Shown piece after piece: positions 38,797-64,000 of a DNA stretch of 64,000 nucleotides; position 1 is the first letter of the stretch; the number at the start of each line of letters is the position of its first letter. Below the pieces are notes generated by a model, which was given only the letters and a program-made list of their open reading frames with translations, had not been told where the DNA came from and did not search any database. The stretch comes from Massalongia carnosa. Lineage: Eukaryota. A program made the translations under genes and the position numbers. Location: the NCBI GenBank assembly GCA_965645245.1, contig OZ287067.1, positions 868,001-932,000 on the forward strand, read 5' to 3'.

Positions 38797-39160
38797 AAAT
38801 CTGCCACTATGCGCCACAATCATCCTGAAGGCTATTCTGAAAGAGGGATAGCGGTAAAGTATGATTCAGTTCGATACAGTATGATGTAAGCACGCTACTG
38901 CACGCCAATGCGCACTAAAACATGACGCCACGTCGGGAGGCTGCCGAGCCCACCCTCTCCGCTCGGCGAAACTCCCGGAATGCATCTTTAAAGCCTGGAG
39001 CCATAATCTTTCGGAATGAGACTATTATATAATAGCTCCGAAATTCGAAGAGATAAAGATGGTTGTGATTAAGCAGGGGGTACACAGTTGAAGCAGCTCT
39101 CGTTGCGGTGGCGACACGACTGATAGCATTACATTCTTGGGTGAGAGATTGAGCCGAATT

Positions 39161-42573: not shown

Positions 42574-43461
42574 GGCGTCTACATTGCTTGCAGTAGTTTG
42601 CTATCGAGAGTGATATCGTGTTTGGGTTATCAATGACGATTTTCAAAGTTTCATGAGTCGCTTGAAGATGAATTGACTCTTTCTTTGGGACGAATCTACA
42701 GTTTGATCATCATTAGGTATAATGAATAAAGGATGAGGAGAATTGCTTACGGTAGCAGACGAGCGCAGCCTCGCGGCGTTTATAGCTAGCCTAAGATATC
42801 CGCAGTATGGTGCAGTTTAGCCTCGCGTCAGCCACAGTCCTAAACAGCCACAAAGCTTGCCAAATGATTATATAGCGTTAGGTGAAATTTTATTGTAATT
42901 AGCAAGAGAACGTGCGGGGTCGTCTCGTACTAACCAAATGTTGAATATCCAATCCCTACCAGCACAATGAACACCTATCAGTACGATGAACATAGCACCT
43001 ACGGCTGCCCTAGATGGACAGATCATCTACGGAAACCGTAGATGCCGCATTAGGCTTAGTCCCAAGATAAGATAAGATCACCTCGCTTAGAAGGGGGTGA
43101 CCAGTAATAGGAAAAGATTGCTGCCTAGCAACTCTTCATCCTTAACATCACGGTCATACATACCTTTATTATTACATAGCCATATAGCCATAGTCATATA
43201 CCTATTTCAACAGGTTATGAGCCCGGAAGGGTGCTATCGATTTAAACGAATCGAAGCTTTTAATCCGCAGCATCGCAGTGCAATCAGCTAAGCATCGTTC
43301 CTATTCAATGAATCGTAGACACATGACTAAATCTTTCTGTGTCTTTAGAAACGATCCCTTAAATCACATCAATCAGTTCTCTCTTCTGTACACAGCGATT
43401 TCTTGTCAGAAGCACAAAAACTGCGTGTTAGAAAGAGCATGAACACATTGATCGTACTACA

Positions 43462-44719: not shown

Positions 44720-45210
44720 AAAAAAGTATATTGCTGGCCCTGAGCGCCCCATTGGTTCAAAAATCATCAAAGCGTCAGTTTCACCCGTGGTTGAGTTCTG
44801 GACACGCAAAAAATACAAAATCCCTCGGACATCAAAGAGCTTAGTAAACTCATTGATCGAAGGCACAAAGACCTTTCTTTTTGGCAATTATGCCTCCTTA
44901 AGGCACTAGATGAGATTGTGCGGCAGTTGCCTCTTATTATTTAACCGGCCTAAGGCCGGTTAAATCAAATTGGAATAACCCTGCGCTCAATTTGCTTTTG
45001 GTCAATTGGACCCTTGAAAAAGCCGAAGTTGAAATTCTCATCATGGCAAACAAGCATGTTAAGCAAACAGGTTTCTCTGTTGAGACATCAGAGTGGACAC
45101 TGGCTAAGGAGGGACTGTTTTTTCCTTGTCTATAAGAAAGGTCACAGATCCACATTCTTTCAGTCACTACTAAGTTTCTCGCCTTGTTCAATTGCTCCCC
45201 ATTCTCCCAT

Positions 45211-48200
45211 TATGCCTATCATAGATACGTCACATCTTTTGGAGAAAGCCGAAAGATATTCGGCATGGGCAAGCTATACGAAGGGCATTCTGCTTAAGAA
45301 CAACTGCGAAGGAGCCATTCTGGAGAGTCAATCAGAAATCACCGCTGAAACCATCAAGGAAGGTTTAATACAAGCAGGCTTCGACGCCAAAGGTCTTTCA
45401 GTCAGCATCTTGGTAAAAGAACTGCGTGACTAGAAGAATAGACAGAAGGCCGAGATGACCAAGGCTATAGGAATCATTCACGGATTAGTTGCGGAGTGCC
45501 ATTACAGCCTCATCGACAACAAGAATGTGGCAGAAATGTGGAAAATCCTGAAGGATAGATTCCAAGATATAGCACCAATGAGCATCAGCGACATCATTCT
45601 GAAGGTTAGTTCCAAGAAGATGACCGACTTCGAGACGACCAGTCTATACTGTGCATATTACGAGAGCGCTTTAAACAAGATTAAAGGAATGCTGGACGAC
45701 AAGGCCAAAGTGGATGTGCATACCGTGGAGTTTATGCTTAAGGGAATGATGCTGGGTAACACCAGACGTCTATTCCCCATTGATAGCCCAACTTCGACGA
45801 GATTGAACATACGAAACCACAAACCTGTCGGAAGCAATGAAGACCATTATTGCTTATTATGTCAACATGAAAATCACCAAGGCACTTCATATCAGCACAC
45901 CTGACTCAAGAGGTCGAGCCCCATCAGGGAACTGCACCTTCTCTTAATGTGTCAAGAGAAAGAACACTCATCATTGGCTAGATACCTGTTTGCAGAAGTT
46001 TCCACAGTTAAAAAGACATAGAAGTTCGCTCGAATCCGGAAGAGCAAAGGAACAAAAGACTACCTCGTTAGAAACGAAGGCGGACTTATCTCATACATCA
46101 ACCAACATTCCAACGACCATTGACACTCCAGATTTGAGGATGCATTTGAGCAAAGTGGACGAGGACACCTATCAAGGACTGGACGTCATTATCTGTCAAA
46201 TCAAAACTCACTACATGGCTTGGAAGGCTTGGTCATCTCAACATAGCAACGTGTCGAAAATATCTGAAAACGCTAGACATAACGTACGATGACGATATCA
46301 ACCACGGTTGGTTTTGCCATGCATGCGAAATGGGAAAAGCCAAAAAGATATACAACCGAACACGGCAAGAGAAGGCCACAGAGCTCTTTCAAAAGATAAA
46401 CTCTGACCTAGTGGGACTAATCAAGCCATCAGGACTTCTTGAAGAACTTTACCTCTTCACTTTCACCTGTGATGCTAGCAGATACACTCATGTCTATACC
46501 GGACACAAGAAGAGTGAATGGTTTGATCACTTGTTGACATACTACAGCATGGCTCAAAACAAATCCGGAAAGGCTAAACTCATAAGCAGTTTTCGCACTG
46601 ACTTCGGCACGGAGCTTCGCAGTCACAAGTCAGACGTTTGGTCCTTGGAACAAGGCATAACGTTTGAAACAGCTGCTCCATACTCTCAAGATGAAAACGG
46701 AGTCGCGGAACGAATGGGCAGAACCATCATGGACATGACAAGATGCAGTGTCATTGCCGGAGACATTCCAGACTACTTGTGGGCAGAAGTGGTTCTAGCC
46801 ATGGTTCACACCAAGAACGTCAGACCAACCAACGCCTTAGCAGGTAAAACCCCGTATGAGATCTTCGAGAAGAAGTCACCTAAGCTGGATCACCTGAGAA
46901 TTCTCGGATCTACAGTCTATGCATTAATTCACGAAGAAGAGCGAAAAGGAATAAACAGCAAGGCTGCTAAATTTTCTCCGAGGGCTCAGAAAGGAATCCT
47001 GTGTGGATATGACAGAAGCACCATCTATCGCGTCTTTATGGAAAAAGACTACAAGGTCATCAGGGTCAAGGACTTACGAATTCATGAAGACGCCACATTC
47101 AAAGATGGGACCGATCTACCCTCGTACGACTCAACATATCATCAAGCAATGAACTCCAAATACGCAAACGAATGGAGTCAGTCTGGGTAATGGATGAGAT
47201 CAAAAGTCTGCTGGAGAATAAAACCTGGGATACATTACCTACCGAGTCCATGGAACCCGGACATATAGTCTTAAGTGGCAAATGAGTATTCAAGCTGAAA
47301 CGGGACGTAAATGAAAAGATCGTTCACTTTAAAGCCAGATGGGTTGTCAAGGATATCTCCAACAATACTGAGTAGATTTCGATCAAACCTTTGCATCTAT
47401 GGTCAAACAATGGCTTTTCGCTTGCTATTCGCGTTAGCTGCTCATCACTATCTGCACATCGAGCGACTGGATATAGTGACAGCTTTTCTGTACGGTCTCA
47501 TTATCAACTCATCTATGTCCACATGCCGAAAGGATATGACACAGCTGGCATGGTGTGTAGGTTGAACAAAGCCCTGTACGGTTTGAACAGTCTCCGCGTC
47601 CCTGGTATGAACGACGGTCAGCTTTTCTATTGAGAAAATTAGGATTGGAGAAACTCCACGCAGATCATAACATTTTCATCACACCTCAAGGGATAAAAGG
47701 ACACATTGTTACCTCTTTCGTTGACGATTTGAACATCATAGGCCCAAAGGGTTCCCCGATGATCACCGAAGTCAAGAAACAGCTCAAGCTAGCTTTCAAG
47801 ATGGTAGACATGGGACCAATCAGCTACTATCTAGGCCTTAAAGTCGAACGAGATCGAGTCAACAAAACTATAAAGCACTCCCATGCGAGAAGGCTGTCTC
47901 TTCATCAATGAATTTCAGGACTCCGACAAGGACATAAAGCAATATCAAACCATGGTCGGATCCATCACGTTCGCAATGATAGAAACCAGGCCAGACATAG
48001 CTTTCGCAACGTCCGTAATCAGTCGAAATGCAAAGAATCCAGGCAAAACACATGAAAGCGGCCAAACACATTCTCAGATACCTTAGCGGTACCAAGAATA
48101 GAGATATCACCTTCGACAAATAGCAGCGAAAATCCAACTGGGGTTATGTGTTCATGCTGAACAATGGACCAATAAGCTGGTGTTCCAAAAGACAAATAAC

Positions 48201-48591
48201 CGTCACATTGTCATCAACCGAAGCAGAGTATATGGCACTCACCTTAGCAGCAAAGGAGGCAACATGGCTACGTTTACTGATGACCGAACTCGGATTGATC
48301 ACTTCTGATGACGGATCCCCGACAATAAACGTGTTAAGAGGAGAAGGCACAATTGCATTGAAAGGCGACAATCAAAGCGCCATAGCACTGGCCAATAACC
48401 CCGTATTACACTCCAGGACCAAGCATATCGACATTCAGCACTACTTTATACGAAACGAGGTGCTAGAAGGAAGAATCGACCTCACCTATGTTCCGACCGA
48501 AGACATGATTGCAGATGGACTGACAAAAACCCTCACGCACGTCAAGTTCTTCTCCTTTATCAGACAGCTCAACATGGACAAACAGACATGA
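45211..48591 (+). pseudogene. Copia gag-pol remnants (gag, rve integrase, RT fragments, RNase H)
   Basis: Integrase SDLVG..RTDFGTE..ENGVAER, RT FVDDL and RNase [26 protein letters not shown]. Multiple stops, frameshifts and deletions. Confidence 0.9.
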
Positions 48592-49031
48592 GAGGTAAAG
48601 AAGTTCAACCACGGTTGAATCCACGATGGAAACAAGTACTGGTAGGACTTGAGGGGGGGTGTTGAATATCCAATTCCTACCAGCACAATGAACACCTATC
48701 AGTACGATGAACATAGCACCTACGGCTGCCCTAGATGGACAGATCATCTACGGAAACCGTAGATGCCGCATTAGGCTTAGTCCCAAGATAAGATAAGATC
48801 ACCTCGCTTAGAAGGGGGTGACCAGTAATAGGAAAAGATTGCTGCCTAGCAACTCTTCATCCTTAACATCACGGTCATACATATTACATAGCCATATAGC
48901 CATAGTCATATACCTATTTCAACAGCTTGATATTATAGAAATTATTTTCCAGTAAGACTGTGCCTCCGCTTGCTTGATATGATCTGACGTGAACCATTCT
49001 CAACCATCAATACCGAAAATAAAAGTCCCCT

Positions 49032-49080
49032 TAACATCCGTCCCTGGGTCGCGAGACGCACCCCGTCGCGAGACGAACCA
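49032..49080 (+). repeat. Dispersed internal repeat, short copy B (about 50-bp core)
   Basis: TAACATCCGTCCCTGGGTCGCGAGACGCACCCCGTCGCGAGACGAACCA matches the start of 34775 and the reverse complement of 53727-53776. Confidence 0.85.
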
Positions 49081-49950
49081 ACAATTTGGACATCTAAAAT
49101 CTCTCCCTTGCAAGTCTATGGAGATATGGTTGGTAAAGGACTTTTTTACAGCCTTTTCTCCTCCTGGACACCCTTCTTCAACGAAAATTACCGCGGTGTT
49201 GGTCATGCTGTCGCTCGTTCGGTTGACGCCATCAATTGCCGCTTCAGCTTTTTCCCCCTGCTAGATCACGGTCAGTCACATATTTTCGGTTTTCGGAACC
49301 ATACGTAGTAGTATGATAGTCCCATGAAGAAAGAATATAGCTCCAAGCTTTAAACATACATATAGAAGTCTCGCCGTGCAAGAAAGGGTGGCGACGGCCT
49401 CGCGCCTTGGGGCGATATTATAGCGTACCTTGGCGTGCATTAGTTTATCTGCTCAATACTGTATTTTTGGTATTATATCATGCCATCCCCTTTTCGGTTA
49501 GGATGACTGTGGCGCACCGTGGTAGGTTTCTAGAAGCGTCCATGGGGAGGCACGTGCCCACTTTCTTTGCGCCTAACTTAAAGGGGGTTCTTGGCGAGAG
49601 CGAGTAGCTTAGCGAGGGAAAGAGCCAGCCAGTGAGCCAAGTAGCATTACACATGCAGGTTCGCCTAAGATCTCACGCACTTACTATGGCAGTGCTTTAG
49701 TGCATGAAGCTAGTGATTATGGACCGCTACTTCCTGGCACGAGATCAAGCCTCATTCCGCCCGTATTGGCTGCCTCACGACCGGCAATTCTTGCAAACTC
49801 ATACTACAATCGACATTCTTAAAGATCCGTCGCCTTGGTTGCGAACTTCGACGGCCGTTTTCGATTCTGCAAAAAGTCTGCGATCGGTTCTTCACTTCGA
49901 CAATTCTCTTAGTTTGATCCGATTGAGAATACGGCTGCGCACAAAACACC

Positions 49951-52116
49951 ATGGAGCACCTCCTGTGTGATGAGGAACTACGTAGGCGACGTCCAAGTAT
50001 GGCAAGAGTGAAATGGCTGGGGTTTGACCACGATTCAAATGGCGAGTATGAAAGGGGCTCCATCCAAGAATACCCTCTGCGCCGAGGTTGGACCGCTATA
50101 GAGATCGATGATCTTAAGAAATGCAAATTGCCAAGTCATCGCTCACTTAAAGATTCCCTCGCTATGCTGCAAAGTTGGATGAGTCTTGGCCTCATGGAAT
50201 GCTTCTTTGGACAACCATTCGCCAGTTCCCTTTTTGTCTCCCAAGTTGGAAATACAGAATTCTTCCACACCAAGCACCTGCGAGGTTACATTGACGATTG
50301 GCAGACTCGCAAATTGCCTTCGTTCCCTCGCCTAGTGATGCTCATGTTCGAGGGTTGCATCACGGACGCCCTGGATGAGGCCCAATCTTGGAACCACCAG
50401 CTGGTCCTCACACAGCGCTTGTACAAAGACCGTAGCCTCTTTGCGGATCGTGCGCTTTTCGATTCGGTGATTCGATTGACTACATTAGTTGGGGAGGCTC
50501 TACAAGCTCTAGCGGAGAGATTTCCTACGTCCAGAAGCAGATTCGCTATGGGGTACGAATGGTTCATCTCAGACGGCAATGAACAGCGACTGCATACCCA
50601 ACTAGAAAGACAAGGTTGGTGTCCGTCAATATACAGGATTCTTATCAAAGGCCTCCGTATGCCATTGTCACTATTGGAATATGCTAGCCTCGTTCGACCA
50701 GCCGACGCAGACCTTCGTATGCACGAGCGCTGCTCATTGCATGATTGTGTAGGATACAATTTGGACAACAAGACGTATCGGACTGAGCACATCTTTAAAG
50801 GCTGCCAATGCAAGCCTTTCTTGTTGCCGTCCCTCTTGAAGACGAGAGATATTCTTCTCGATAACGATGTTCCACTTATCAATGGAGATGTCTTGTTACA
50901 ACGCAGCTCTGCAGAAGGCTCTGTGTCTCGTGCCGGCTCTGGTCTTCGTTACGTAGCCTTTTCTCACATCTGGTCTGATGGTCTCGGCAGCTGTACAGAA
51001 GATGGTCTGCCCCGGTGCCAAGTAGAGGCCCTATGCAATATGGCAATGGAAGTTGGGAACACGTCTCAATTCTGGATTGATTCTCTTTGTATCCCAAGAG
51101 ACGTTCGAACGAGGAAGCGAGCTATCTCACAGATGGCGAAAACCTATCGGAATGCGTGCGCAACGATAGTCCTTGATAATCGAATCAAGACATGCAGCGC
51201 ACAAGACACCAAAGAAGAAATCATGCTTACTTTAGCATCGTCTGTGTGGCAACGGAGACTTTGGACCTTACAAGAAGGTGCGTTATCTAATAGAATGTAC
51301 TTCAAGCTGGCAGACTCATTTCTGCACGATGGGACGCTCCTGGACAATGCGGGTCCAGAGGCGTATAAACCGATCATCAGAAATTGTATCTCACACCTGG
51401 ACAATATCAGTGCTTGGGCTCTTGTTGGTGATGTAACTATTGGCGCAATGCAACGCAACATATCTCATAGAACGAGCAGTACACATGACGATGAGGCTCT
51501 GGCAATGGCCTCTTTGCTAAATCTGGATGTCTCCGACATCTCTCGATTACTCGATGTCGACGGCGAGGAGCGGATGATACGCTTCTGGTCCATGGTTCCC
51601 TCGATTCCCCGAGGCATAGTAATACTGGGGGGCGCAAGAATTAAGCAGGAGCCATTCCAGTGGGCACCGAGATCGCTGATGAGTAGAGAAGATCAAGGAT
51701 CAATGGACAAAAGGGACGGGAGTGCGAAATCTACGTCAATGGGCTTGTTAGCGACCTGGTATATCTATACAGTCACAAAGGGCGTGCTTGTGAATCTCGC
51801 TGTCGATCAAGCTCACTTCTACAATGCACAGACGAGCGCTGTTCTTACTGTCTATCCCGATAAGGAACGCACAGTCGAACCATTTCACTGCCACGTGGAT
51901 GCGATCTTGTGTCTTGACAGCCTGCCAGTCAGCGACCGCGAGACAGCTGGTGTTGTTCTTTCATTCGTCAAGACGTCTGGCCGCCGCAAGGTATACAAGT
52001 ATGAGAAACTATGTCCAGTCTGCTTGCATGATAATGAGCCAGCAGAATTCATCAGATTTCTAAAGCAAGAAGAACAAACCGTCACAGGCGCCATGGAAGA
52101 GCTGGTTATATCTTAA
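49951..52116 (+). CDS. HET (heterokaryon incompatibility) domain protein, 721 aa
   Basis: HET motifs YVAFSHIWSDGLG, FWIDSLCIP, AISQMAKTYRNA..VLD and WQRRLWTLQEGAL in an intact ORF. Confidence 0.9.
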   Translation: MEHLLCDEELRRRRPSMARVKWLGFDHDSNGEYERGSIQEYPLRRGWTAIEIDDLKKCKLPSHRSLKDSLAMLQSWMSLGLMECFFGQPFASSLFVSQVGNTEFFHTKHLRGYIDDWQTRKLPSFPRLVMLMFEGCITDALDEAQSWNHQLVLTQRLYKDRSLFADRALFDSVIRLTTLVGEALQALAERFPTSRSRFAMGYEWFISDGNEQRLHTQLERQGWCPSIYRILIKGLRMPLSLLEYASLVRPADADLRMHERCSLHDCVGYNLDNKTYRTEHIFKGCQCKPFLLPSLLKTRDILLDNDVPLINGDVLLQRSSAEGSVSRAGSGLRYVAFSHIWSDGLGSCTEDGLPRCQVEALCNMAMEVGNTSQFWIDSLCIPRDVRTRKRAISQMAKTYRNACATIVLDNRIKTCSAQDTKEEIMLTLASSVWQRRLWTLQEGALSNRMYFKLADSFLHDGTLLDNAGPEAYKPIIRNCISHLDNISAWALVGDVTIGAMQRNISHRTSSTHDDEALAMASLLNLDVSDISRLLDVDGEERMIRFWSMVPSIPRGIVILGGARIKQEPFQWAPRSLMSREDQGSMDKRDGSAKSTSMGLLATWYIYTVTKGVLVNLAVDQAHFYNAQTSAVLTVYPDKERTVEPFHCHVDAILCLDSLPVSDRETAGVVLSFVKTSGRRKVYKYEKLCPVCLHDNEPAEFIRFLKQEEQTVTGAMEELVIS

Positions 52117-52729
52117 AACAATTTGCGTTGTTCCCCCATTGTTCCGTTTCTTCATACCTTGCCCGGGCAGGCATCGCCAAGCTTGAAGCCCGTGTTCGCA
52201 AGGAGCGCAATCGCGAATGTCCCTAGCTCAGAAATACCCTGACTTCTTTGAGGCTCAGGCGTGCAGATAGAAAATGTCATCAATGCATATGAAGCGGCAT
52301 TTGATACCAAATTTGATAGTGTGACGTACTAGGTGTACGCGGGCAGTAGTATACGATGTGAGATACTGCAACAACCATGCATAGGTGATTCCGACAGACT
52401 GCCGACGGGACTCCGACGGTAGTCCGACAGCATCGAGTTATGGAAGCACCTGGAATGAATTGGGGGCACCTATGCCAACAGCAGTAGGAGAGGTTGATTG
52501 AAAGAAAGACTAACTCTTGCCCCTCCATGGAGGTGGCAGAGTGCTATTATATAGAGATGACTTCCCCGCATTTGTAAATCAACCAATAGAGAATGAAGCA
52601 ATACATATAGCGCGCGACGAGGTTCCGACGGGCTTCCGACGGACCTCCGACGCGGCCCCGACCGCATAGATATCTCATTATGCCATTATACTCCATGCAG
52701 ATGCTCGCCACCATATGCTTGCAGTCTGA

Positions 52730-53050
52730 CGGTTACATAACAACTTAGGCAACCTTTACAAGAATCAAGGCAAGCATAGCGAGGCGGAGAAGATATATCG
52801 GCGGGCGCTGGATGGGTACGAGAAAGCATGGGGCCCGGACCATATATCGACTCTTGATACCGTCAACAACTTGGGCAACCTTTATAAAAATCAAGGCAAG
52901 CTGGTGGAAGCAGAAGAGATGTATCGGCGGGCGCTGGATGGATACGAAAAAGCATAGGGCCCGGACCATATATCCACACTCCGTACTCTCAATAACCTAC
53001 GTTTGGTTGATGCCAGTCGAGGTGGGCATATGAAAGTGGAAGAGATATAA
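52730..53050 (+). pseudogene. TPR-repeat relic typical of fungal NLR C-termini
   Basis: Two roughly 42-aa repeats NLGNLYKNQGK..EAE..YRRALDGYEKA(W/*)GPDHIST, with a stop codon and no upstream NOD domain. Confidence 0.8.
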
Positions 53051-53322
53051 TCGCAGGGGCTCGATAGAAGCGATGGAGTTTACGACACCAATCGGCATCC
53101 ACAATCGCCACCATCAACGGGGAAAGGCATCTTGAAGAGACTCAAAGTACGTATACGGAGGCGGGAAAGGGGCTTCACATAACCAAATTTCGTTATGCAG
53201 GGAGCTTCACCGCGCCGGGATGGGGTTCAATCAAGATGTTGTCTAACTTAGTCGCAATTCGGCGCAATAGAAAATTCGTAGCCACAGGCCTATCAGCCAC
53301 AATATAAATTGCGCTGTAAAGT

Positions 53323-53776
53323 ACAGTAATGATTACGCGGGATATGCCGAGTAGGGCAAAGGCTTCTTCATCGTGGCTTGGCAGTACCAACCGACGTGGC
53401 GACGCCGCATGTCATAGCGCCTCACAGCCGCCATAAGGCTGACAACGACTTTTCAGCGTCCCTATATGATTCTAGGACTAGGGTAAAGGTCATTCACGAT
53501 TTCCGACAGTGGTACAAGCTTAATGGTGGTCCTATGGTGGACGAGTGCTGTTATTCCACCAAAAGGGTTATCATCGTAAATTTAGGGGGCGGCGACGATG
53601 CGAATGTAAATTTCCAGTAGCTGCTCACAGAACCGTTCAGAATTGGCCGCATCACAAGACTGATGCAAAAATACGGGAGACTTCCATGCGTTCACAAATT
53701 AAAGTCGCTTGAAATCAAAGTACCTGTGGTTTGTCTCGCGACGGGGTGCGTCTCGCGACGCAGGGACGGACGTTAC
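53323..53776 (-). repeat. Dispersed internal repeat, copy C (inverted relative to copy A)
   Basis: Reverse complement GTAACGTCCGTCCCTGCGTCGCGAGACGCACCCCGTCGCGAGACAAACCACAGGTACTTTG.. aligns with 34775-35236. Confidence 0.8.
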
Positions 53777-54461
53777 TACAAATCCATCATCGTAAGTCAG
53801 CCAAGACCGGTCAAGTGTCTAGATGTGAGATTAATAAGGAGATTCCCATCTCAATTCTCGAGCAGAGAGAGCGGGGTCGGGAGCAAGATTGGGGAGCCAG
53901 GCATGGCTGCGTGAGCCAAGAATGGAGCAGGGTAGGTAGAAGTGGATTGGGGGAGCCAGAAATGGAGCCGGGGAGCCAGAAGCGGGGCAGGGGACTCAGA
54001 AGATTGGGGGAACCAGAAGTGGCTTGCATGTAACTGGTATCCACCTTAGAGACTACTAGCAAGACTAGAGTAGTGGGAGCCTACATATCATCGTCGTCGT
54101 CATCATCGGCGGAGCCAAGAGTGGAGGGGCGCGTACCTATTTTCGGGATTTCTGGAACGGATAATCTAATTAGTCGGTTGGTAGATTCTTGCATACCATC
54201 ACTGACCATATATCCAAACCCAGCCTTAAGAGATTTTCAGGTCGCCTAAGAGGATGATCAGGCAGCTGAAGTTCTTTGAATGGAATCCTCGAGAATTCCC
54301 AGTGTGGTACGCAAACTTAGTCTCATCGAAAGTCATTAGGTTATTGCATGCATATGATGCAGATTTTGGAAGTCAGACGCAAAGCTCTCCTAACTGGCTA
54401 TAACAGTATCTACCACATCTATACCCAGACTTGCTTGCTTATAAATAGGTGCAAAGACTCC

Positions 54462-55224
54462 CTATCCGAGGTGCTCTTCCATGGAGGTGCAAGCTAGCTC
54501 CGATTTTACCTGATCCAGAGCTATGAAAATCTTGTTCATTTCTCTGCAGTATCTGTCTGCATTGCTCTTTGACTCCTCAGCTATTAGCTTCCACTCACGT
54601 ATGTGCTTCTCGAATTTTCCATTGTCCATCTGCAGCTGCTGGATGGTGACTTTCAGTTCACCAGCTTCTAATTCAGCTGCTCGTCTCCTTTCTGACTCTG
54701 TAGCAACCCGACGTTCCCATTTGCTAATTTCGCGAGTCAATCTGACGTTGTCCTGGTGTAGGTCGTCAATCTTTGCCACAAAACTGACTTCCGGTCTGGG
54801 AAATTCCAGAAACTTATTAGGCAGTCAGCTGATCGTCGAAGTAACGAGAACGAGCAGCGCGTACAGACTTTCCCCCATCCTGTACCCGGGGTTCTGATTG
54901 AAACGGGGCCTTCCAGATAGCTATAAACGATTTATCGACACCATCACACAAATCCTTGAGCTGGCCAATCGAAAGATCACTGAGATTTTTCGAGAACAGG
55001 TACTCCTTTTCGTTTAGTTTTTCCCACGTATAAGGGTCATCCGCGTTGGTTTTGAGCCGCACCTGCGACGTCTCTATCACGATTCCGAGCCTTCTATCTT
55101 TGCTCGTGTCAGTAACGGCTGACTACAGAAGATGACGGCTCTTACAAATATGCGCTGATAGTTTCTCTCTGCATTTCTTGTTCCACTCCGTTCGCTTTAC
55201 ATTATTGGGTCGACGAGAGGCCAT
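54462..55224 (-). pseudogene. Coiled-coil hypothetical protein, probably disrupted
   Basis: ATG at 55224, a probable intron, then ORF 54817-55080 ending in tandem TAA TAA, followed by an out-of-frame heptad-rich ORF 54462-54779. Confidence 0.45.
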
Positions 55225-55705
55225 TTTTTCTTTGGATCGTTTGGAGAGTGAATTGATCAGAATTCCCAAAGGAGTTACCAGCTATTATTTTCAGTGAACT
55301 TGATGTCATCATTTAAAGAATCTGGGCATGAACAGAAGCTGGATTGGACGTCAGAAGCTTTTGACTCTTCGTGGGGCTCCAGATCTGGCACCCTCTCTTG
55401 GGGAGCCAAAATTGGAGCCCCAAATCGAAGGAACGGAGGTGAAAATCTGGACACCTGCGTTGATTGGAGGTTTTTTTCAATCCATGCCAAAGTCCTCCTA
55501 TTGTCACGAGCTGACTGTAGGCTGTGTAGACCTGCTTCAAAAGTATAGTCTTAGGGCCATCATCTCGTTGATGCGCAATAAATGGACCTGGGATTCGAGC
55601 GACGGCGGCCCGAATTTAGAGCCAGGACACAAAGTATTATACGTATTTAACCTGGTTACGAAATAACTAAGGCAGAAATTATCTGAGGTTTCCCCTCTTT
55701 CCACT

Positions 55706-56443
55706 TCACAACCACCACCCATCCTTTCCCGTTGCACCTATGTGACGCAAAGATCTCACGTTGAATCCAATCTTTTGAAAGTAATAATCCGATGGGTGTT
55801 CCGCACGCATGTCGGATTGTGACAAGATGAGACAGCATATATTATCCACCTGAGATAGTCGCTTTGCTTTTCCATTGATGCCAGCAATCTCATTATATTC
55901 AAGTCGTCCGAGCGCATGATTACGATGCTGCCAGAACAGATACTTTCCTTCTGGATGGCCGCTACTAGTAGAAAACAGTTTTTTCAAGTCTGGCAGCATC
56001 AAAACCTCTGGATCATTGAGCACAGCCTCAATATTGACGACTAGCCCACAGCCAATGCGGACTTCTTTGGTAGCCTCATCGAAGTTGTGCGGTTTGAGAC
56101 AGGAGAAGAATAACTGACGTAGTTCCTCACTCCAAGTGGTGAAATCTCCCGACATATCACCAGGCTGAAGTATCAGATAATTCTCCTTACCTCCCTTTCT
56201 CTGGGAACCGTGGTAGCACTTTTCCAGGTCATAGCCTATTAGAACGGGGTTGATGTGTCGGTGCTCTGCTTCGTCGAGCCATTCCTGACTTTGGAATATT
56301 AAGTCCCATACTCGTGCATGCTTGTGCTGTGCTGAACGAAGCCGAAAATGAAAGATCAGGGATGCGTTTAGAGCGGATAGCGATGATAAATTCTGTGCGA
56401 TAATGTCCCACACCTCTTGGGCCGGTTTATTCGAGAAAGGCAT
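55706..56443 (-). CDS. Hypothetical protein next to captain, F-box-like N-terminus
   Basis: MPFSNKPAQEVWDIIAQNL start resembles an F-box; the 3' end is uncertain. Confidence 0.45.
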   Translation of the reverse strand: MPFSNKPAQEVWDIIAQNLSSLSALNASLIFHFRLRSAQHKHARVWDLIFQSQEWLDEAEHRHINPVLIGYDLEKCYHGSQRKGGKENYLILQPGDMSGDFTTWSEELRQLFFSCLKPHNFDEATKEVRIGCGLVVNIEAVLNDPEVLMLPDLKKLFSTSSGHPEGKYLFWQHRNHALGRLEYNEIAGINGKAKRLSQVDNICCLILSQSDMRAEHPSDYYFQKIGFNVRSLRHIGATGKDGWWL

Positions 56444-56847
56444 TGAAGTTGAAACTATCAGGATGAGTCGTAGAGAGATAAGTCGAATGAGGCTGCAACG
56501 CAAAGGGGGGTCGCTTCGACTTTATATGCATTATCAACAATCAATGCGAGTGGGTAGCCAATAATGGATACCCCAGCCGGAAGTCGATGCCATATCTAGA
56601 AGTGGGTACCCCAGCCAGAAGTTGGTACTGTAGATATATCATTTGTGTAGACGAGAGGCTTGAGTGGTCGACAAATGCAACATGCTCAATTTTTCTATCT
56701 CATTAGGCCTGGTCAGAACCGGGGCTACGAAATCTCTCATCCCGCTCTATAGGTCGATGAAGCACACCTTCGGCTCTAAATTACTTAAAGGGCTGTGGTA
56801 GTCTCTTGTAGCTAAATTTCTAATTGCGAATGCGGAACCATCTCGTG

Positions 56848-59800
56848 CTATGATGGGGGAATAGCAGGCTGCGAAATGGACTCGTTGAGCAGTCTCGGGT
56901 CGATAGATAGGGGAAGGTCGGAGATGACTGACGCCGGCGTCGTGTCATCGAGTGCGGTCTCGTCCGAGGTCCAATCAATTGACGAAAGCGGGCTTTCAGA
57001 GCCTGTGAAAGATGCTGCGGACGAACTTCGCTTCTCCTGATTTACTACCGAGTCGATCGAAGGAAGAGAGTAACTTTGACTAAGGCTATTTTTATCTTCC
57101 AGTCTCACTGGTCCAGTCCGAACGATAATGTCGAGTGGCTCGAATATTGGCGAGTCTATTGTTTTATTGATATGCTTGTAAGAACTTTCCTCGTTCAGGA
57201 GGTCACAACGGTACTCCAGCTTGACGTTCGCGCCGGTAAGAGCCCTCACATTCAGAGAAGACTGACGTGTTAGGCGGCGCCTTTTGATCGGATCGAGCTT
57301 GATGCGCTCAACGCAGTGTACATCCTGACAGTGACACTGAAGATCTTGAATCGAGTCGAAAGAAAGTGCACAGCGTGGATCAGGACATGGGACTACCTTG
57401 CTTTCACCCGTTTCCACGGATCGGTTGTACCTGTCTTCGAAATGCCAGAAATGTTCTTGCAGGTGCTCTTTCCAGCTCTGTTTAACGAGGAACTGATGGA
57501 AACGTTTCGTTGGTGAGAGCTTCAAATCGAAGAGACAGAAGAGACACTGCCCAGCAGTAGCAAGGGTTCGGCGGAAGACAAGTGGATTGCATTGAACTGG
57601 GAGCGTCTCGAGGTCGGTGAGATGGCGTTGACAGTGCTCAAACCATCCGGTCCCACTGGTGATCCATTCGTCGCACTGAAAACAGAGCTCGGCAAAGCCG
57701 TATTTCCTTTCAAGGTCGCCCTTGTGGCAACGGTAAATATGTTCCCACCTATCGCCCATACTGATGCTGTAGAATCGAAGGGTGGTCAGCCAGTCCGCAA
57801 CAACTGAGCATATGGGAAATTAGAAAGGAGAAGCAGACGAACCGATCCATATCCCTCGCACATTGGGGTACAGGGCAACGACCGTTTGCAGGCCGCAAGC
57901 TTGGACGATAGGCTACCCGCGGATTTTCTTTGCACAACGTGATCATATCCTGAAGTGCGCTGCGGCCCTGCATACTGCGGAGGGGAACGTTGAGGAAGAG
58001 CAAAGACGCCAGCCGATCACGTGGCGGATCCAAACGGCGAATCCGGTTGAAGTAGCTTGGCAGACTTGCGACTTGAGGTGCTTCATCCTCCGTGGTTGAG
58101 GCAATCTTGCGTGGTTGAATCTGCTGCCATTTGCTGAGCTCCTCGGACACGAGCTGGCGTTTTCGCCAATACAGTTCCTCTCGTCGAGCCCGAGCTGGCT
58201 GGGCTTCATCTTCTAACGTGATGCCCCGAAGCTTCTCTCCCAGTATTTCGATCTCCTTGTTGATGGAGACGAAGTCGGCACAGTGATCCAGGTTGGCTTC
58301 GACCTTTGCGGGTAGCGATTGCAACAGCTGAGGATGGTGATGGAGCGATAGCCCGCGAAATCCTTCAAGATGGACGGTGCGGCGTTTTTTGTTCCAGTAA
58401 CTCGCCATACCGTCCACAGTGCTCAGCTCAGGCGCGTATGAGCCAAAGAAAGTATCTGCGTTGTTATGGCCGGCGAATTTCATCCTTTCGGCGATTGAGT
58501 AACCATTATCTTTAGCCGAGTCAGCGTGTCTCAATGGTCGTGGTTCGTCCGTAAGAACTTACCATCGGCTTTGACAAGGGCTTCTCTTCGAATATCATGT
58601 ATCCCAATATTTTCCTCGTACCCGGCGCGATGCCCCAGATCTACTGTCCGATTACTGAACGAGCCCGCTCCATGAATCTTTCCTGTGGGTCCATCCGCAG
58701 ATACTATCTGGAAAAAAGGTACACGAAGCATGTCCTTTTTGATTCGAAGATGGTGCAAGGACCCATCCGCAGGTGGTGGAATCGCCTCGATCTCTTCGAA
58801 AGACCCATAGTCCTGGAAGGCATCATCCGCTAGGGCGATTGCCATCAAAGGTAGCACTGGGTTCGCAAATAGTGGCTCCATATCCTCATACATGCCATGC
58901 TGTGGCCTAGAATCACATCAAAACAGTCAGCAAGGATTGCTCTCAACCATGATCCCGAAGATTTGGACAGTGAAGTAACCTTTTATGCGGTGTTTCCGAA
59001 AAGCCTTTTGCGTCTCTTATGACTCGCACACCAATTTCCGCCTCCTCCTTTTCATTCTTGAAGATGACAAAGTCGATTGTCTGCTCGCAGCGTAAGCGCG
59101 ATGCTCGACTGCTTTCTTGGTCGGCAGTGCCTTATAGGATCAGTCCACTTACCTCATATAGTAGTCCACGGCCGGAGCCTCTGCGCATGTTCGATTTAAA
59201 ATACTCGCCTACTCGCGCCGACGAATAGATGAAAAGCATGTAGGCAGCGTGATCCTGGACGAGGATCCTTCCATGTCTGTATTGATGCCAATCCTTCATC
59301 CACATGTGTTTGATCACGATAACGAAGTGGTTCACTGTCATGAAGTGCCGAGTTCGCCGAGTTGTTGAAAGGTTGAACTTCTTGCGTAGCTCGGTTTGTA
59401 TGTACTTGTAAGATCATCAGCCCCTGCAGGTAGAGAGGAGGAGCAAATCGGAGACCGGGTACGAACAAAAAATGTAGACTCCGACACGTCAGGAGGAATC
59501 TTGTCGTTGCCAGGCCGCCGTTTCCAACCGGCGCCAAAGTCTGTCCATTTCTGAAGCATATAGTACATAGATGGTTCCTTCTCACCGGCACAGCAGCCGC
59601 GCACAACACCCTCCATGAAGTGCTTTGTCGTTTTCAAATGGTGGGGGCTTGCGCCAGGGTTTCTCCTTGCATATCTGTTCCAGCAAAACGAGACACAGTC
59701 AGTGAGAATTTTGCAGGACTTCGTAGCAATAGGGAGAGATGTGGAGACCTACTCGTCCCAAAGGACCAACATTCGGTTATAGTTAACTTCAGTACCGGAC

Positions 59801-59913
59801 TCGATGTGCTTAGAGACCGTATCGCCATCGATATCGGCGTTATTTAGAGACTCATGGCCATTTGATTCCGCATCATCGAAGAACTGCGCCGCAGTCCTCT
59901 TCTGCTTCACCAT
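56848..59913 (-). CDS. Starship captain: DUF3435-type tyrosine recombinase, 7 exons, about 880 aa, apparently intact
   Basis: ATG at 59913 (MVKQKRTAAQFFDD). The spliced path gives tyrosine-recombinase catalytic motifs SSARVGE (R), RDAKG (K), HDIRR (HxxR) and AGH..FFGSY (H, Y), then C-terminal C2H2-like fingers (CPVPQC, CFQC..HC..H, CPDPRC..HC..H). No stops were seen. Confidence 0.9.
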
Positions 59914-60265
59914 TGGAGACGAGGTAAAGGGGGAAATTGTAGCTAGACAAAGCTACCCTGGCCACTGAGGCGTATACAGCGAAGAGAGAAAGAGAGAGAG
60001 ATATGCAGAGTGGATATGAGATGATAACGTCTATAATGACGCGCTTGGTACACTGACGGGTTACTGCAGGACGCAGGCAACTAGAAGTGAAGGTAAAGAG
60101 TAAGAGGAAAAGAGCAAGAGGGCAAGAGCAGAAGATAACATGGTGGGCGGTCGGTGGAGCCATAACCGGCTCCTCTCTGATCAGCATCCAAAACAGGCTG
60201 ATTGGACGCTTTCGTTTAAACTTGTAAGAACGCATTAGCAGCTAAGGAGTAGGAAGTGGCTGAGG

Positions 60266-60387
60266 GGGAGCACGGGGGAGCAGAGAGGGAGCACGAGGGA
60301 GCAATGAGGGAGCAGGGGAGAGCAGCGAGGGAGCATGGGGGAGCAGAGGGAGAGCACATCGACGAAACGGGCGTTAGCGGGGGAGCA
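60266..60387 (+). repeat. Subterminal GGGAGCA array, captain end of Starship 1
   Basis: 8 exact GGGAGCA copies plus 2 GAGAGCA variants, mostly 10-11 bp apart. Confidence 0.9.
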
Positions 60388-60443
60388 AAGCGGCGGCTCC
60401 TTAGTCAGCGACCGATCACGTGTTGGCCTGGGTTCGGGGATGC

Positions 60444-60461
60444 TATATATATATATATATA
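60444..60461. repeat. (TA)9 microsatellite between the two Starship ends (putative target site)
   Basis: Sequence reads ..GGTTCGGGGATGC-(TA)9-GTTTCCCCGAACC.. Confidence 0.9.
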
Positions 60462-60956
60462 GTTTCCCCGAACCCAGGCCAACACGTGACCGTCTGCTGA
60501 CTCAGGTGCCGCCGCTTTGCTCCCCCGCTAAGGCCCGTTTCGTCGATGTGCTCCCTCATTGCTCTCCCATGCTCCCTCGTTGCTCTCTCCTGCTCCCTCG
60601 CTGCTCCCCCGTGCTCCCCCTCAGCCACTTCCTTCTCTTGAGCTGGTAATGCTTTCTGACAAGTTTAAACGAAAGCGTTTATCCAGCTCGTTTTGGATGC
60701 TGATCAGAGAAGAGCCGGTTATGGCTCCACCGACCCCCCATCGTGTTGTCTTCTGCCCTCACCCACTTGCTCTTCCCTTCTTCCTCTTCCTCTCCTCCCT
60801 CACGTCCAATTGCCTGCGGCTTGAATACGATACTGTATACGTTGTCATCTCAACTGCACTCTACAGATTACTGCCTCTTTCTCTCTTCGCTGTACACGCC
60901 TCAGGGGCCAGGGCACTTTTCTCTAGCTACAGTTTCCCCCCTTTACCTCGTCTCCA

Positions 60957-62023
60957 ATGGCAAAGAAGAAGAGGACGGCGGCGCAGTTCTTCGATGATGC
61001 GGAATCGCATGGCCTGGAGTCTCTGAACAAGGCGGACATCGATGGCGATACGGTCTCCAAGCACATCGAGTCCGGCACTGAAATCAATTATAACCGAATG
61101 CTGGTCCTTTGAGACGAGTAAGTCTCCACGTCTCTCCCTGTGGCTACGAAATCCTGCAAAATCCTCACTGACGGTGTCTCGTGTTGCTGAAACAGATACG
61201 AGAGAAGAAACCCTGGCGCCAGCCCTCATCATTTGAAAACGACAAAGCACTTCATGAAGGGGGTTGTACGCGGCTGCTGCGCCGATGAGAAGGAACCGTC
61301 GATGTACTACATGCTCCAGAAATGGACAGACTTTGGCGTCGATTGGAAGCGGCGATCGAGCAACGACAAGATCCCTCCTGACGTGTCGAAATCTACATAC
61401 TTTGTTCGTATCCCGATCTCCGATGTGCTCTTTCTCTTCATCTGCAGGGCCTGATCATCTTGTCAATACATACAAACCGAGCTACGCAAGAAGTTCAACC
61501 TGTTCACGGCTCGACGAACTCGACACTTCATGACGATGAATCACTTCGTTATCGTGATCAAACATATGTGGATGAAGGACTGACATCAATACAGACACGG
61601 GCGGATCCTCGTGCAGGATCACGCGACCTATATGCTGTTCATTTACTCGTCGACGCGAGTGAGCGAGTATTTTGAATCCAACATGCGCAAATGCTCCGAC
61701 CGTGAATTGCTATACGAGGTGAGTGAATTGATTCTTCGACTCATTGTCGATCAAGAAAGCGGTCAGTGATCGTACTGACGTTTCGAGCAGACAATCGACT
61801 TCGTCGTCTTCAAGAATGAAAAAGAAGAGACGAAAATTGATGTGCGAGTCACAAGAGACGCAAAAGACTTTTCGAAGACACCACACAAAAGATTGCTTCA
61901 CTGTTCAGATTTTCGAAATCGCGGTTCAGAGCAAGCCTGCTGACTGTTTCGATGTGATCTAGGCCACAGCATGACATGTATGAGAATATGAAGCCGTTGT
62001 TTGCGAACTCAGTGCTACCTTTG
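60957..62023 (+). pseudogene. Second captain tyrosine recombinase, pseudogenised and interrupted by an LTR element
   Basis: Starts MAKKKRTAAQFFDDAESH. TGG->TGA stops at 61110-61112 and 61581-61583. SSARVGE has become SSTRVSE. Homology stops abruptly at 62023. Confidence 0.9.
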
Positions 62024-63761
62024 TGTTACGACCCTAGTAGGGATAGGACATCCTACTATGGATCGAACAGTTAAACCGTTCTGGGTTTGGACCCAGCGGG
62101 AAGCTCACCTGGCTCACTGGTGAGCAAGGCGAGCTGGATAGCTCACCTGGCTCACTGACGAGCAGAGCGAGCAGGTGCTCATCGAGCTCACGAGCGAGCA
62201 GAGTGAGCAAGAACTATATAAGTAGCGAAGATTCTCTTATGAAAGCTTCGTGTTCAATTCTCTTTATCATCTTAACTTCATAGTTACAATCTACTGCATT
62301 GACGATTGTTCTCATTTACGTGAAGCTATTCTCGTTGCATCTGACGAACACTACAGATCGCTCTATATAAGATCAAACATTTCTCGCGTTTGAAACATCG
62401 AAGAAGACGCGTAGCACTTTGAACATTTTTAAAGATGTCTGTATCAGATCAACGAACTTTTACTTCAAGCATCATTGACAACACTCAACATTAAACAACG
62501 ATTATCGATGACGACAAAATCAAAATCAACAAATCTGACGTATATCACGAAGATCGTAATGAACTGAACGATTGATTCACACAGATAAACATTTACTTTA
62601 TTTTTAATAATGTTTCAACAGCAAAGAAAACTTTATTCGCATCAATCTTTTTTAAAGAAAAAATCGAAAAATGATTCAAATCATTTCTGCGCAAACATTT
62701 AAATGATGACGAAAATCTCGAACATGTAATCGCGCGTTATGATTGTTTCAAGATCGAAATTCGAAGAATCTTTGAAATCTTTAATGAAGAAAAAACAGCG
62801 AAAAGAACAATACAACATTTGCAACAACGAACGTCTGCGACGAAATATGCAGCACGATTTCAAAAACAAGTCAATTTAATGGAATGAAACGACGCAGCTT
62901 TAATGATCATGTATAAGAAAAATCTTAAAAACAATGTCAAGAATGAATTTATGAAATGAAGCGAAGACATAAACAGTTTCAAATTCTTGATGAAAATCGC
63001 GATCGAATTCGACGACAAGCTTTACGAACGTGTCATGAAAAAACGTTACAACGATTCACGCAGAAATGCGAGCATTTTTGCGAAATCAGTTGATTATCGC
63101 AGAAAAGAATCACATTTCAGAAATAATATCGATAATTACGATATCACGTTTATGAAATTGAATTCGACACAACGACGCAAGAAGATCAACTCTAAAAGAA
63201 ATAAAAAAAACAATAAAAACAACAAAACGTGTTATTCATGTGACAAATCGAATCATTTCGCGAAAAATTGTCGATCAAAAAACTTAATGCAACGACGACA
63301 GATCAATGTTACATTGAAGAAAGATTCTGATGCATGAAAAAAAATAAAAAAGAAGAAAATCGCAAGAAACATCGAGAATTTTTTGAATTTCAGCACAGAT
63401 GACGAATACTTTCATGTGAAAATTCGAAAAAAATTACTCGAAATGCTCAATGAAAAAAAATCACACGAGACATCTGCGACGACAACGCAATTGAACGAAA
63501 CAATCAAAACGACGATTAAATCATCAACATCGTATTTTAAACAAGAGAATCAAGACGAATGTGAATGAATCGAATTAAAACGACAGCAGTTCGACGAAAT
63601 GATTGCAGAATTGAATCGAATGAACAGAATTTCTTGAATATGAAATATGTTCAATCAATTCGAAAAAATTTTCGAAAAACGCATGTTCGAGCGCGACTCT
63701 CAATTAAAAGAAATAATTGAAAAAACATTGAAAAGCACAATCTCGCAAACAAGTAATATTT
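62024..63761 (+). mobile_element. Ty3/Gypsy-type LTR retrotransposon, 5' part (LTR about 62024-62416 plus heavily mutated gag)
   Basis: TGTTACG..CGTAGCA LTR termini. A gag-like frame starts at about 62435 with a zinc knuckle CYSCDKSNHFAKNC and many stops. The Gypsy call rests on gag resemblance only. Confidence 0.75.
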
Positions 63762-64000
63762 TGTTGAATATTCAACTCCTACCAGTACTGTCATGAAATG
63801 CCTCCGACCTCACCACGTGCCTCTATCACGTGCCTTGATCTGATGACTACTCACGGACGTCGTGCCATGCCTTCGGGACCCTCATATCATTCTTCGAATT
63901 CGCCGATTACTGATCATTAATCAGCCTCGCATTGATGTTTGATGTCATGGAGTGACTGGGCACCTGCCAGTTAGTTCATTGAATCAACCTTAGCTGCTTG
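63762..64000 (+). mobile_element. Copia-like LTR start nested in the Gypsy element
   Basis: TGTTGAATATTCAACTCCTACCAG resembles the start of the 42939 LTR (TGTTGAATATCCAATCCCTACCAG). Composition returns abruptly to CC/GG-containing sequence here. Confidence 0.6.

Follow-up and report, generated by a model that had tools for sequence, protein, structure and literature searches.

A head-to-head pair of related Starship-type elements on a (TA)9 tract in Massalongia carnosa, probably formed by two separate insertions

The window analysed here, a 64,000-nt stretch of Massalongia carnosa DNA, contains an imperfect palindrome: a left arm (58846-60443) and a right arm (60462-62023), inverted homologues with 85.1% identity, lie on either side of a perfect (TA)9 tract. 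Read outward from the centre, the global alignment of the arms has 1321 matches, 232 mismatches (166 transitions and 66 transversions) and 53 gap columns. Collinear inverted-repeat blocks found in a repeat search of the window tile 58846-62023 and, together with the alignment, bear out the original description of inverted arms of about 1.6 kb set only 18 bp apart. From the centre outward, both arms hold the same 24-nt terminus, then a phased GCTCCC/GGGAGCA array and a leader, and finally the 5' exons of a DUF3435 captain gene. The terminus, CCCCGAACCCAGGCCAACACGTGA, has just two copies in the window, one at 60416-60439 (-) and the other at 60466-60489 (+), against a chance expectation of 0.00, and period-21 arrays lie at 60262-60357 and 60549-60618. 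Homology between the arms ends sharply at about alignment column 1606 (window 62023/62024); because an LTR insertion cuts the right copy at this point, the 1.6-kb arm length is not the natural limit of the homology. We refer to the elements to the left and right of the (TA)9 tract as L and R.

Table 1. Features of the two elements and of the palindrome that joins them (window positions).
Feature	Position	Strand	Size or identity	Basis
TA-rich tract (AT)6(TA)3 flanking the L tail	20068..20085	none	18 nt	
L tail: linker CA (2 nt), TIR, GGGAGCA array	20086..20252	+		pattern match, TRF, L009 tail homology
L interior (cargo)	20253..56847	none		Pfam scans
AAA_11/AAA_12 helicase with RZ finger, in L cargo	23858-29827			
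DUF7924, in L cargo	30943-32361			
OTT_1508-like deaminase, in L cargo	39695-40912			
zf-MYND ORF, in L cargo	40816-42573			
Nested copia-type retroelement, in L cargo	~42.9-48.9 kb			
HET-domain ORF, in L cargo	49927-52116			
Intact captain gene of L, predicted DUF3435 tyrosine recombinase	56848..59913	-	883 aa, 7 exons	homologue alignments and GT-AG sites
L captain exons	59913-59753, 59674-59467, 59404-59153, 59080-58980, 58906-58563, 58509-57843, 57766-56848	-		
L head: leader, array, terminus, 4-nt linker	59914..60443	-		
(TA)9 tract, perfect, palindrome centre, common to both heads	60444..60461	none		bridged by 279-nt read contig
R head: linker GTTT, terminus 60466-60489, array 60549-60618, leader	60462..60956	+		
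R captain 5' part, pseudogene: exons 1-4 and start of exon 5	60957..62023	+		
Hypermutated LTR retroelement inside R captain exon 5: TG-starting LTR, gag, CCHC knuckle	62024..64000, runs off the window	+		Pfam, composition
Inverted-repeat block I1			527 nt, 82%	
Inverted-repeat block I2			480 nt, 88%	
Inverted-repeat block I3			240 nt, 87%	
Inverted-repeat block I4			173 nt, 88%; 0 nt between arms	
Inverted-repeat block I5			108 nt, 82%	
Inverted-repeat block I7			66 nt, 89%	
Inverted-repeat block I14			21 nt, 95%	

The captain of L is the first gene of its element and reads inward from an ATG 526 nt from the terminus. Judged by its sequence, it is a predicted DUF3435-type tyrosine recombinase, with a Cys/His-rich region at its C-terminal side. 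Exon 5 alone, a fragment query, matched PF11917 (DUF3435) with 19.6 bits (E 4.8e-4; cut-off 25.8 bits); the homologue P0009, 63% identical to the L captain over 776 aligned positions, matches the same profile with 64.5 bits (E 1.2e-17), and a precomputed table lists PF11917 in 18 of 28 homologues. The best named homologue belongs to a Gyalolechia MAG. Exophiala homologues are also among the matches and, as a lead only, fit the captain clades common to Lecanoromycetes and Chaetothyriales that are reported in the available text of PMC13486527.

With boundaries drawn from family homology, L is a predicted complete Starship-type element of about 40.4 kb (20086-60443), and TA tracts flank both its head (60443) and its tail (20086). 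At the tail, an 8-nt terminal inverted repeat, CCCCGAAC, was found by pattern search with 0 mismatches at 20088-20095; TATATACACCCCGAAC and the GGGAGCA array together occupy 20080-20252, the array itself (20148-20252 by TRF) comprising 12 GGGAGCA motifs spaced 10/11 nt apart. The head array at 60262-60357 has 10 GCTCCC motifs, and the head linker, read inward, is GCAT. At both ends of L the motifs alternate between 10 and 11 nt spacing and stand in direct orientation. The L tail shares homology with that of a mini-element of about 205 nt, consisting of a head plus a tail, in metagenome loci L009 and L020, which itself has TA-rich tracts on its flanks. To the left of the TA-rich tract bordering the L tail the DNA is host-type, with ZIP transporter, kinase and CBM21 ORFs. 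A far end built of TIR, TA and array had been predicted for the second element, whose tail falls outside the window; that structure is present at the end of L (20068-20252).

Pfam scans of 50 ORFs (31 + 19) gave no match to DUF3723, patatin (PLP) or ferric reductase (FRE), which, like NLR genes, are common but not obligatory auxiliary genes of Starships; a HET-domain ORF was the only find. The scanned ORFs ran from stop to stop, so that split genes could escape. The second scan, of 19 ORFs, added copia RT fragments only.

R is a dead and probably older relative of L that runs in the opposite orientation from 60462 beyond the window end; with its tail outside the window, it could be a head fragment only. 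Its head array has 8 motifs, two fewer than that of L. Two in-frame TGG>TGA stops (61110-61112 and 61581-61583) fall at positions that are Trp in L and in seven relatives, and the captain is broken at 62023/62024 by the LTR retroelement, a multi-copy sequence whose other copies in read contigs diverge exactly at this junction; one captain is thus intact and the other carries stops and an LTR insertion, as originally described. The R-specific C>T/G>A changes are concentrated at CpC sites (36/153, versus 20/501 other sites; odds ratio 7.4, p 7e-12), with only 6/170 CpA and 0/145 CpG sites changed, and the bias is absent in L (7/122 CpC sites changed). The LTR element shows dinucleotide ratios to expectation of 0.16 for CpC, 0.32 for GpG and 0.46 for TpA. 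From the CpC-directed changes and the CpC-depleted element abutting them, R decayed in place, through a process that acts like RIP in another sequence context. Classical RIP was rejected as the cause, its CpA preference and TpA excess being absent; a CpA context is reported as general for RIP-like defences in the part of PMC12543289 available to us. In the read data, run X21 has a loose end at 60458 that leads into AT-rich sequence and may represent another copy or a haplotype without R, and R-arm cover is absent from run X1.

A 20-mer from the terminus, a query that did not include the TA tract, found 35 metagenome loci that collapse to 20 distinct flanks. At all 20 of these sites a TA tract of 2-9 units and a 4-nt linker lie directly outside the terminus, and the flanks are otherwise unrelated. 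Among the 18 distinct sites offering 1.1 kb or more downstream, 14 carry a captain homologue, and in 13 of these it starts 489-543 nt from the terminus; the other four informative sites show a family head but no captain over the next 3-4 kb. The linkers differ between L (GCAT) and R (GTTT), and since GTGT recurs in the similar elements L015 and L031 at different sites, the linker seems to belong to the element. Loci L006 and L014 have a common flank and different interiors. Away from heads, tracts of at least (TA)5 are met roughly every 50 kb (5 tracts in ~267 kb of window plus redundant loci). The TA flanks at 20/20 sites suggest captain-mediated integration into (TA)n tracts, and the (TA)9 tract at 60444-60461 would have served as target and crossover sequence. 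A second head-to-head pair exists at L028, where (TA)9 separates a family head from a degenerate head in inverted orientation; a near-copy of the L028 head (219/222 nt) has an ordinary flank in L010. The uniform TA flanks and this second pair favour the original reading of two elements that meet at a TA tract. A preference for docking beside residents did not emerge: chance could account for one head-to-head case in 20 unbiased sites.

Chimeric long reads are a classic source of palindromes, and we weighed whether a fold-back chimera, or else an erroneous join at a repeat, had produced this one; no single contig listed in the read-contig comparison spans the whole 6-kb stretch, and the read data contain 'opposite strands' joints near the centre with sides of 32-41 nt. 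A technical fold-back would give identical arms, however, and these differ at 15% of positions as well as by indels. A 279-nt contig rebuilt from k-mers of run X19, which is probably the source sample of the assembly and so tests the assembler rather than the biology, crosses the (TA)9 tract (60352-60630) with 0 differences at depth 452, the single-copy depth of the neighbouring contigs (448-456), and run X22, which has another organism label and comes from another study, likewise contains exact pieces specific to L and to R. The junction predicted from the assembly is real, and an artefact is scarcely credible. The termini might instead belong to a Tc1/mariner-like transposon with TIRs, TA duplication and MITE derivatives, the DUF3435 gene being a passenger: the short terminal inverted repeats are flanked by TA, and the mini-element of L009/L020 resembles a MITE. 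Yet the inverted repeat is just 8 nt, the flanks are tracts of 2-9 TA units and not a single TA, the captain keeps its steady distance from the terminus at 13 independent sites, and none of the ORFs scanned in L matched a DDE transposase of this kind; the DDE-type matches were limited to the integrase of a copia element within L and to a hAT beyond its ends. We regard this alternative as highly improbable.

A further alternative is a local inverted duplication, in which breakage or template switching at a TA tract prone to cruciform formation copied the head of a single resident element in inverted orientation and the copy then decayed in place. The symmetry axis does lie inside a foldback-capable (TA)9, the R arm is a pseudogene, and a tree of the 1.6-kb termini weakly joins L and R as sisters (branch length 0.009, support 81/73), so that phylogeny alone is compatible with a common local origin; in that tree L007, L009, L014 and L024 share the terminus only and sit on long branches, and lineage inference rests on codons. 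Across 259 codons of captain exons, L and R differ with Sd 63 and Nd 38, giving dS 0.545, dN 0.065 and dN/dS 0.118 (values that depend on exon limits set via GT-AG sites and homologue alignments), a ratio matching the 0.10-0.13 among intact family members. A copy inactive ever since a local duplication would evolve neutrally. Branch dN/dS is 0.07 for L (32 synonymous, 8 nonsynonymous changes) and 0.27 for R (28 synonymous, 29 nonsynonymous), but 25 of the 29 nonsynonymous changes in R are G>A or C>T, and with this burst set aside the counts on the R branch fall to 18 synonymous and 4 nonsynonymous. The captain exons thus appear, from their codons, to have diverged under purifying selection. 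Moreover, L033, with an unrelated metagenome flank, is nearer to L (90.5%) than R is (84.8%) and is 86.8% identical to R, and shared derived states are split effectively three ways (L+R 13, L+L033 12, R+L033 8 sites). Because an element elsewhere is as close to each arm as the arms are mutually, divergence preceded insertion. The linkers differ, and the arms are separated by 66 transversions and 53 gap columns, not solely by the C->T/G->A changes named in advance as the mark of a duplication. Taken together, these data make a local duplication very unlikely and uphold the view that two related elements, each bearing a captain, inserted independently and meet at a TA tract.

We conclude that the locus very probably holds two Starship-type elements of one family that were placed head-to-head by separate captain-mediated insertions into a TA tract, R first and then L. 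The L and R lineages diverged as active elements elsewhere, and each would later have integrated into a (TA)n tract by captain-mediated recombination. R probably arrived first; CpC>TpC hypermutation would then have struck it, creating both stop codons, and an LTR retroelement would also have inserted into it. L would later have entered the TA tract bordering the R head. That the degenerate element is the older one agrees with the original prediction, the order being read from differential decay only. Because (TA)n reads alike on both strands, either orientation would be possible, and the outcome here was head-to-head. The palindrome is a by-product of this two-insertion history. A further-reaching version, in which stacking is programmed in a TA-microsatellite-targeting Starship lineage, the flank TA tracts beside putative captain-binding arrays seeding neighbouring insertions in either orientation and an intact captain being able to invert or co-mobilise composites, strikes us as unlikely.

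As described in the available text of two papers (Gluck-Thaler et al. 2022, PMC9156397; Gluck-Thaler & Vogan 2024, PMC11162782), Starships have a DUF3435 captain, cargo, short direct repeats and sometimes TIRs. L resembles them in its captain, first at the 5' end and reading inward, its size of tens of kb, its mixed cargo with nested retroelements, and its short TIRs and flanking repeats. The same text reports further parallels to the locus: AT-rich insertion sites for the Phoenix and Prometheus families, nested and tandem Starship insertions, and a captain-killing LTR insertion. L differs in its insertion site, a (TA)n tract where that text speaks of AT-rich sequence in general, in its phased subterminal motif arrays, of which that text makes no mention, and in the absence of DUF3723, PLP and FRE matches among the scanned ORFs. 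A lichen-associated comparison is Tangerine of Xanthoria parietina, which, in the portion of PMC13486527 available, is 85-102 kb long and known from a single locus; its captain lies 1,390 bp inside the end, its direct repeats measure 4-5 bp and its TIRs 10-12 bp, and it carries DUF3723, PLP and NLR genes. Like L it is captain-first with repeats at its flanks, TIRs and nested retroelements, which in Tangerine are RIP-affected; the family described here differs in a captain 526 nt from the end, TA-tract flanks and at least 20 insertion sites.

A literature search for a head-to-head pair, a microsatellite target or a non-autonomous derivative of Starships returned nothing relevant. Bacterial integrative elements with a tyrosine recombinase stack in tandem (accretion) at a shared attachment site whose core borders a resident relative, and an intact element may process a neighbour's ends. 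Bacterial accretion is head-to-tail owing to its asymmetric core, whereas the arrangement here is head-to-head on a self-complementary (TA)n core.

The pair shows that elements can stack in opposite orientations when their target is self-complementary, and the resulting 3-kb imperfect palindrome might be prone to inversion or breakage. By analogy with the arm-type sites of phage integrases, the phased subterminal arrays could be binding sites for the captain or an accessory protein, and the natural head-plus-tail derivative of about 205 nt delimits sequences that may act in cis when the captain binds and recombines. Comparing the mutated resident with the unmutated newcomer dates CpC-directed hypermutation in relative terms. 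Starships are described as hard to annotate and without conserved structural features in the accessible part of the starfish paper (PMC11162782). The family of L and R is an exception among them, with a directly searchable conserved terminus and a strict TA-tract flank, and because it has such conserved structural features its mechanism is testable.

The head-to-head pair of Starship-type elements is real, and the original prediction of it was essentially right. An inverted-repeat search of the window delimits an imperfect palindrome at 58846-62023 tiled by collinear inverted blocks, including a 173-nt pair without spacer and others of 240, 480 and 527 nt, with 82-88% complementarity. Aligned outward from the centre, the arms of the left (L) and right (R) elements are 85.1% identical (1321 matches, 232 mismatches and 53 gap columns), bearing out the predicted inverted homology around an 18-nt TA tract, and their similarity ends abruptly past position 62023. 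A 24-nt terminus lies 4 nt off the tract on each side; these two copies, one per strand, are the only ones in the 64 kb, where chance would yield none. Inward of it, both arms carry a period-21 GGGAGCA/TGCTCCC array, then a leader, then the first exons of a gene. A 279-nt contig rebuilt from public run X19 spans 60352-60630 with 0 differences at depth 452 (single-copy neighbours, 448-456), which speaks against misassembly, although X19 is probably the assembly's source sample and the match therefore tests the assembler only. Run X22, from another study, also holds exact L-type and R-type pieces. A technical fold-back is ruled out by the 15% arm difference.

Coordinates of features in and around the paired elements
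Feature	Position	Strand	Details
Palindrome centre	60444-60461		perfect (TA)9
L head array	60262-60357
R head array	60549-60618
L tail array (GGGAGCA)	20148-20252		inward of third terminus match
L tail flank			(AT)6(TA)3, 18 nt, just before third terminus match
Host left flank of L			reads ...GCTAGGTAA up to TA tract
L captain	59913..56848	minus	7 exons, 883 aa, stop-free translation
LTR repeat in R captain	from 62024		begins TG; 36-37% GC; Retrotrans_gag E 7.9e-4, zf-CCHC E 3.4e-4
Deaminase domain ORF (OTT_1508-like)	39695-40912		L cargo; E 3.1e-17
Nested copia-type retroelement	~42955-48713		in L; rve, SH3_retrovirus, RVT_2, RVT_3
Identical short repeats	42955-42992 and 48676-48713		probably LTRs of the copia element
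51-nt tandem repeat	43465-44719		about 25 copies, within copia element
hAT-type transposase ORF	11249-13258		DUF659 + hAT dimerisation domain; host flank, outside L

Large minus-strand ORFs left of the centre have 28 homologues, 18 of them with PF11917 (DUF3435); named captain homologues come from Exophiala, Aureobasidium, Aspergillus, Geoglossaceae and a Gyalolechia MAG. The L captain, whose exon model derives from homologues and GT-AG sites, aligns end to end with the homologue P0009 (63% identity over 776 aligned positions). Against the DUF3435 profile P0009 scores 64.5 bits, and exon 5 of the L captain by itself scores 19.6 bits (E 4.8e-4). The R arm holds exons 1-4 of the same captain plus 21 codons of exon 5, with TGA codons at 61110-61112 and 61581-61583 where the L copy and seven relatives encode Trp. 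The repeat that cuts this gene is multi-copy in public runs, where its other copies part from the window sequence exactly at 62023/62024, confirming an LTR insertion, which sets the length of the palindrome arms. One captain is therefore intact and the other carries stops and an LTR insertion, as had been proposed. Run X19 also contains, at single-copy depth, a second copy of the captain 3' half (57656-58900) that differs at 19 of 225 nt and has small indels around 57782-57833; this may be the rest of the R captain, on the far side of the LTR insertion and past the end of the window. X22, whose organism label is a different one, has a contig in which an exact L-type captain piece at 58950 runs into LTR sequence 62328-62576 in reverse, so that these two repeats are arranged otherwise than in the window.

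The first 20 nt of the terminus are present in 35 metagenome-assembly loci, which, oriented on the motif, reduce to 20 different upstream flanks. Immediately outside the terminus, every one of the 20 carries a 4-nt linker preceded by 2-9 TA units, with unrelated sequence farther upstream; because the query excluded the TA tract, the TA flank is an independent result. The linkers found were GTTT, GTAT, GTGT, GATT, GCAT, ACTT, TATT and TTTC. Since similar elements at different sites have the same linker (e.g. GTGT in loci L015 and L031), we assign it to the element and take the TA tract to be the target or direct repeat. A captain homologue is present in 14 of the 18 sites having at least 1.1 kb downstream, the other four having the head alone, and in 13 of those 14 its start lies 489-543 nt from the terminus. 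Family-wide, GCTC[CT]C motifs sit at near-fixed offsets (53, 84, 95, 105, 116, 126 and onward) within the first 200 nt of most loci, alternating by 11 and 10 nt, or about one helical turn; the L arm has ten, the R arm eight and the L tail twelve. Every head aligned on the motif has a CACGTG box at positions 17-22. Loci L006 and L014 have a common upstream flank and first ~57 nt of head and then differ, L006 having its captain 1.8 kb in and L014 having none within 4 kb; either separate haplotypes or a chimeric assembly join at a repeat could account for this.

The string TATA-N4-CCCCGAAC matches the window exactly at three places: both heads and, on the plus strand, 20080-20095. In two loci, L009 and L020, a ~205-nt element consists of the head terminus, one continuous array and an end matching window 20080-20200, with a TA-rich tract on each side (L009:4001-4205, stored strand, and L020:1425-1629, reverse complement, both in head-motif orientation). 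The third terminus match, its array and this homology together identify 20086-20252 as the genuine tail of L, which is about 40.4 kb long. The termini of L are inverted and its head and tail arrays are in direct orientation. Its interior holds a large helicase, DUF7924, a deaminase-like ORF, MYND and HET ORFs and the nested copia-type element; DNA left of 20068 carries ordinary-looking genes. The ~205-nt miniature resembles a naturally arisen non-autonomous derivative and is a candidate minimal substrate.

Under a local inverted duplication R would be a copy of the L head, dead since it was made, and arm differences confined to C>T/G>A changes had been named as the sign of such an origin. The arms differ by 166 transitions, 66 transversions and indels, including one 21-nt array unit, so C>T/G>A changes do not make up all of the differences. 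Across 259 captain codons, L and R show dS 0.545, dN 0.065 and dN/dS 0.118 (intact family pairs, 0.10-0.13), far from neutrality (binomial p 2e-19), and they differ by 13.2% in exons and 20.1% in introns. Polarising the changes with seven relatives puts 32 synonymous and 8 nonsynonymous ones on the L branch and 28 and 29 on the R branch, 25 of the latter 29 being G>A or C>T; leaving out G>A/C>T, R retains 18 synonymous and 4 nonsynonymous. By these counts, the gene stayed functional in the R lineage through most of the time since the split from L, and a transition burst followed. Selection on transposons acts via transposition and does not hold a resident copy at its own locus, and a copy dead since a local duplication cannot yield the pattern seen in R.

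Relatives point the same way. Locus L033, whose flank is unrelated, shares 90.5% identity with L and 86.8% with R, compared with 84.8% between L and R; shared derived sites number 13 for L+R, 12 for L+L033 and 8 for R+L033. The L/R/L033 trio is fully supported in the tree, and the branch uniting L and R is just 0.009 long (support 81/73). We thus regard local duplication as very improbable and the proposal of two related, independently inserted elements as upheld. If the insertions were independent, the DNA right of 64000 should hold the remaining R captain exons, after the LTR element, and then a tail with the sequence ...GTTCGGGG, bordered on its inner side by a TGCTCCC-strand array and followed outside by a short linker, a TA tract and host DNA.

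R-specific C>T/G>A changes affect 36 of 153 CpC sites and 20 of 501 sites elsewhere (odds ratio 7.4, p 7e-12), and both R stop codons are GpG>GpA changes; in L such changes have no CpC bias. In the LTR element of R, over 62024-63780, CpC stands at 0.16 of expectation, GpG at 0.32, CpG at 1.92 and TpA at 0.46, with TpC and GpA in excess. From this distribution, R underwent the same mutagenic process as the retroelement, and L was spared. The simplest order would be R, then its LTR insertion, both before the arrival of L, and we think it likely that both predate L; the alternative is that L escaped by chance. This contrast in decay makes the predicted sequence of an older element followed by a relative the probable one. 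Classical RIP is CpA>TpA, whereas the change in the R arm and LTR element is CpC>TpC (GpG>GpA); a 2025 survey, in the part available, describes a CpA preference as common to RIP-like defences (PMC12543289).

The arrangement recurs in locus L028, where a family head faces an inverted degenerate one across (TA)9 (3900-4060, head-motif orientation, reverse complement of the stored locus). The degenerate head has the terminus, a ~465-nt insertion and then head positions 21-173, with no captain within 3.3 kb; the element facing it is identical at 219 of 222 positions to L010, a locus whose flank is ordinary. The idea that TA tracts serve as docking sites stands insofar as TA borders the terminus at all flanks. 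Since L028 is the one head-to-head case among 20 unbiased sites, and, away from heads, tracts of at least five TA units turn up roughly every 50 kb, we do not claim preferential docking beside residents, and the adjacency may be due to chance. AT-rich insertion sites, nested or tandem insertions and a captain-killing LTR insertion are on record for Starships in the parts of the reports available (PMC11162782, PMC9156397). Tangerine and other lichen-fungus captains were described in 2026, and as far as the available part of that account goes their elements differ in architecture from the present family (PMC13486527). In our literature search, no account of a head-to-head pair, a (TA)n tract target or miniature derivatives came up. 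The chief value of the finding lies in defining a Starship lineage of unusual tractability.
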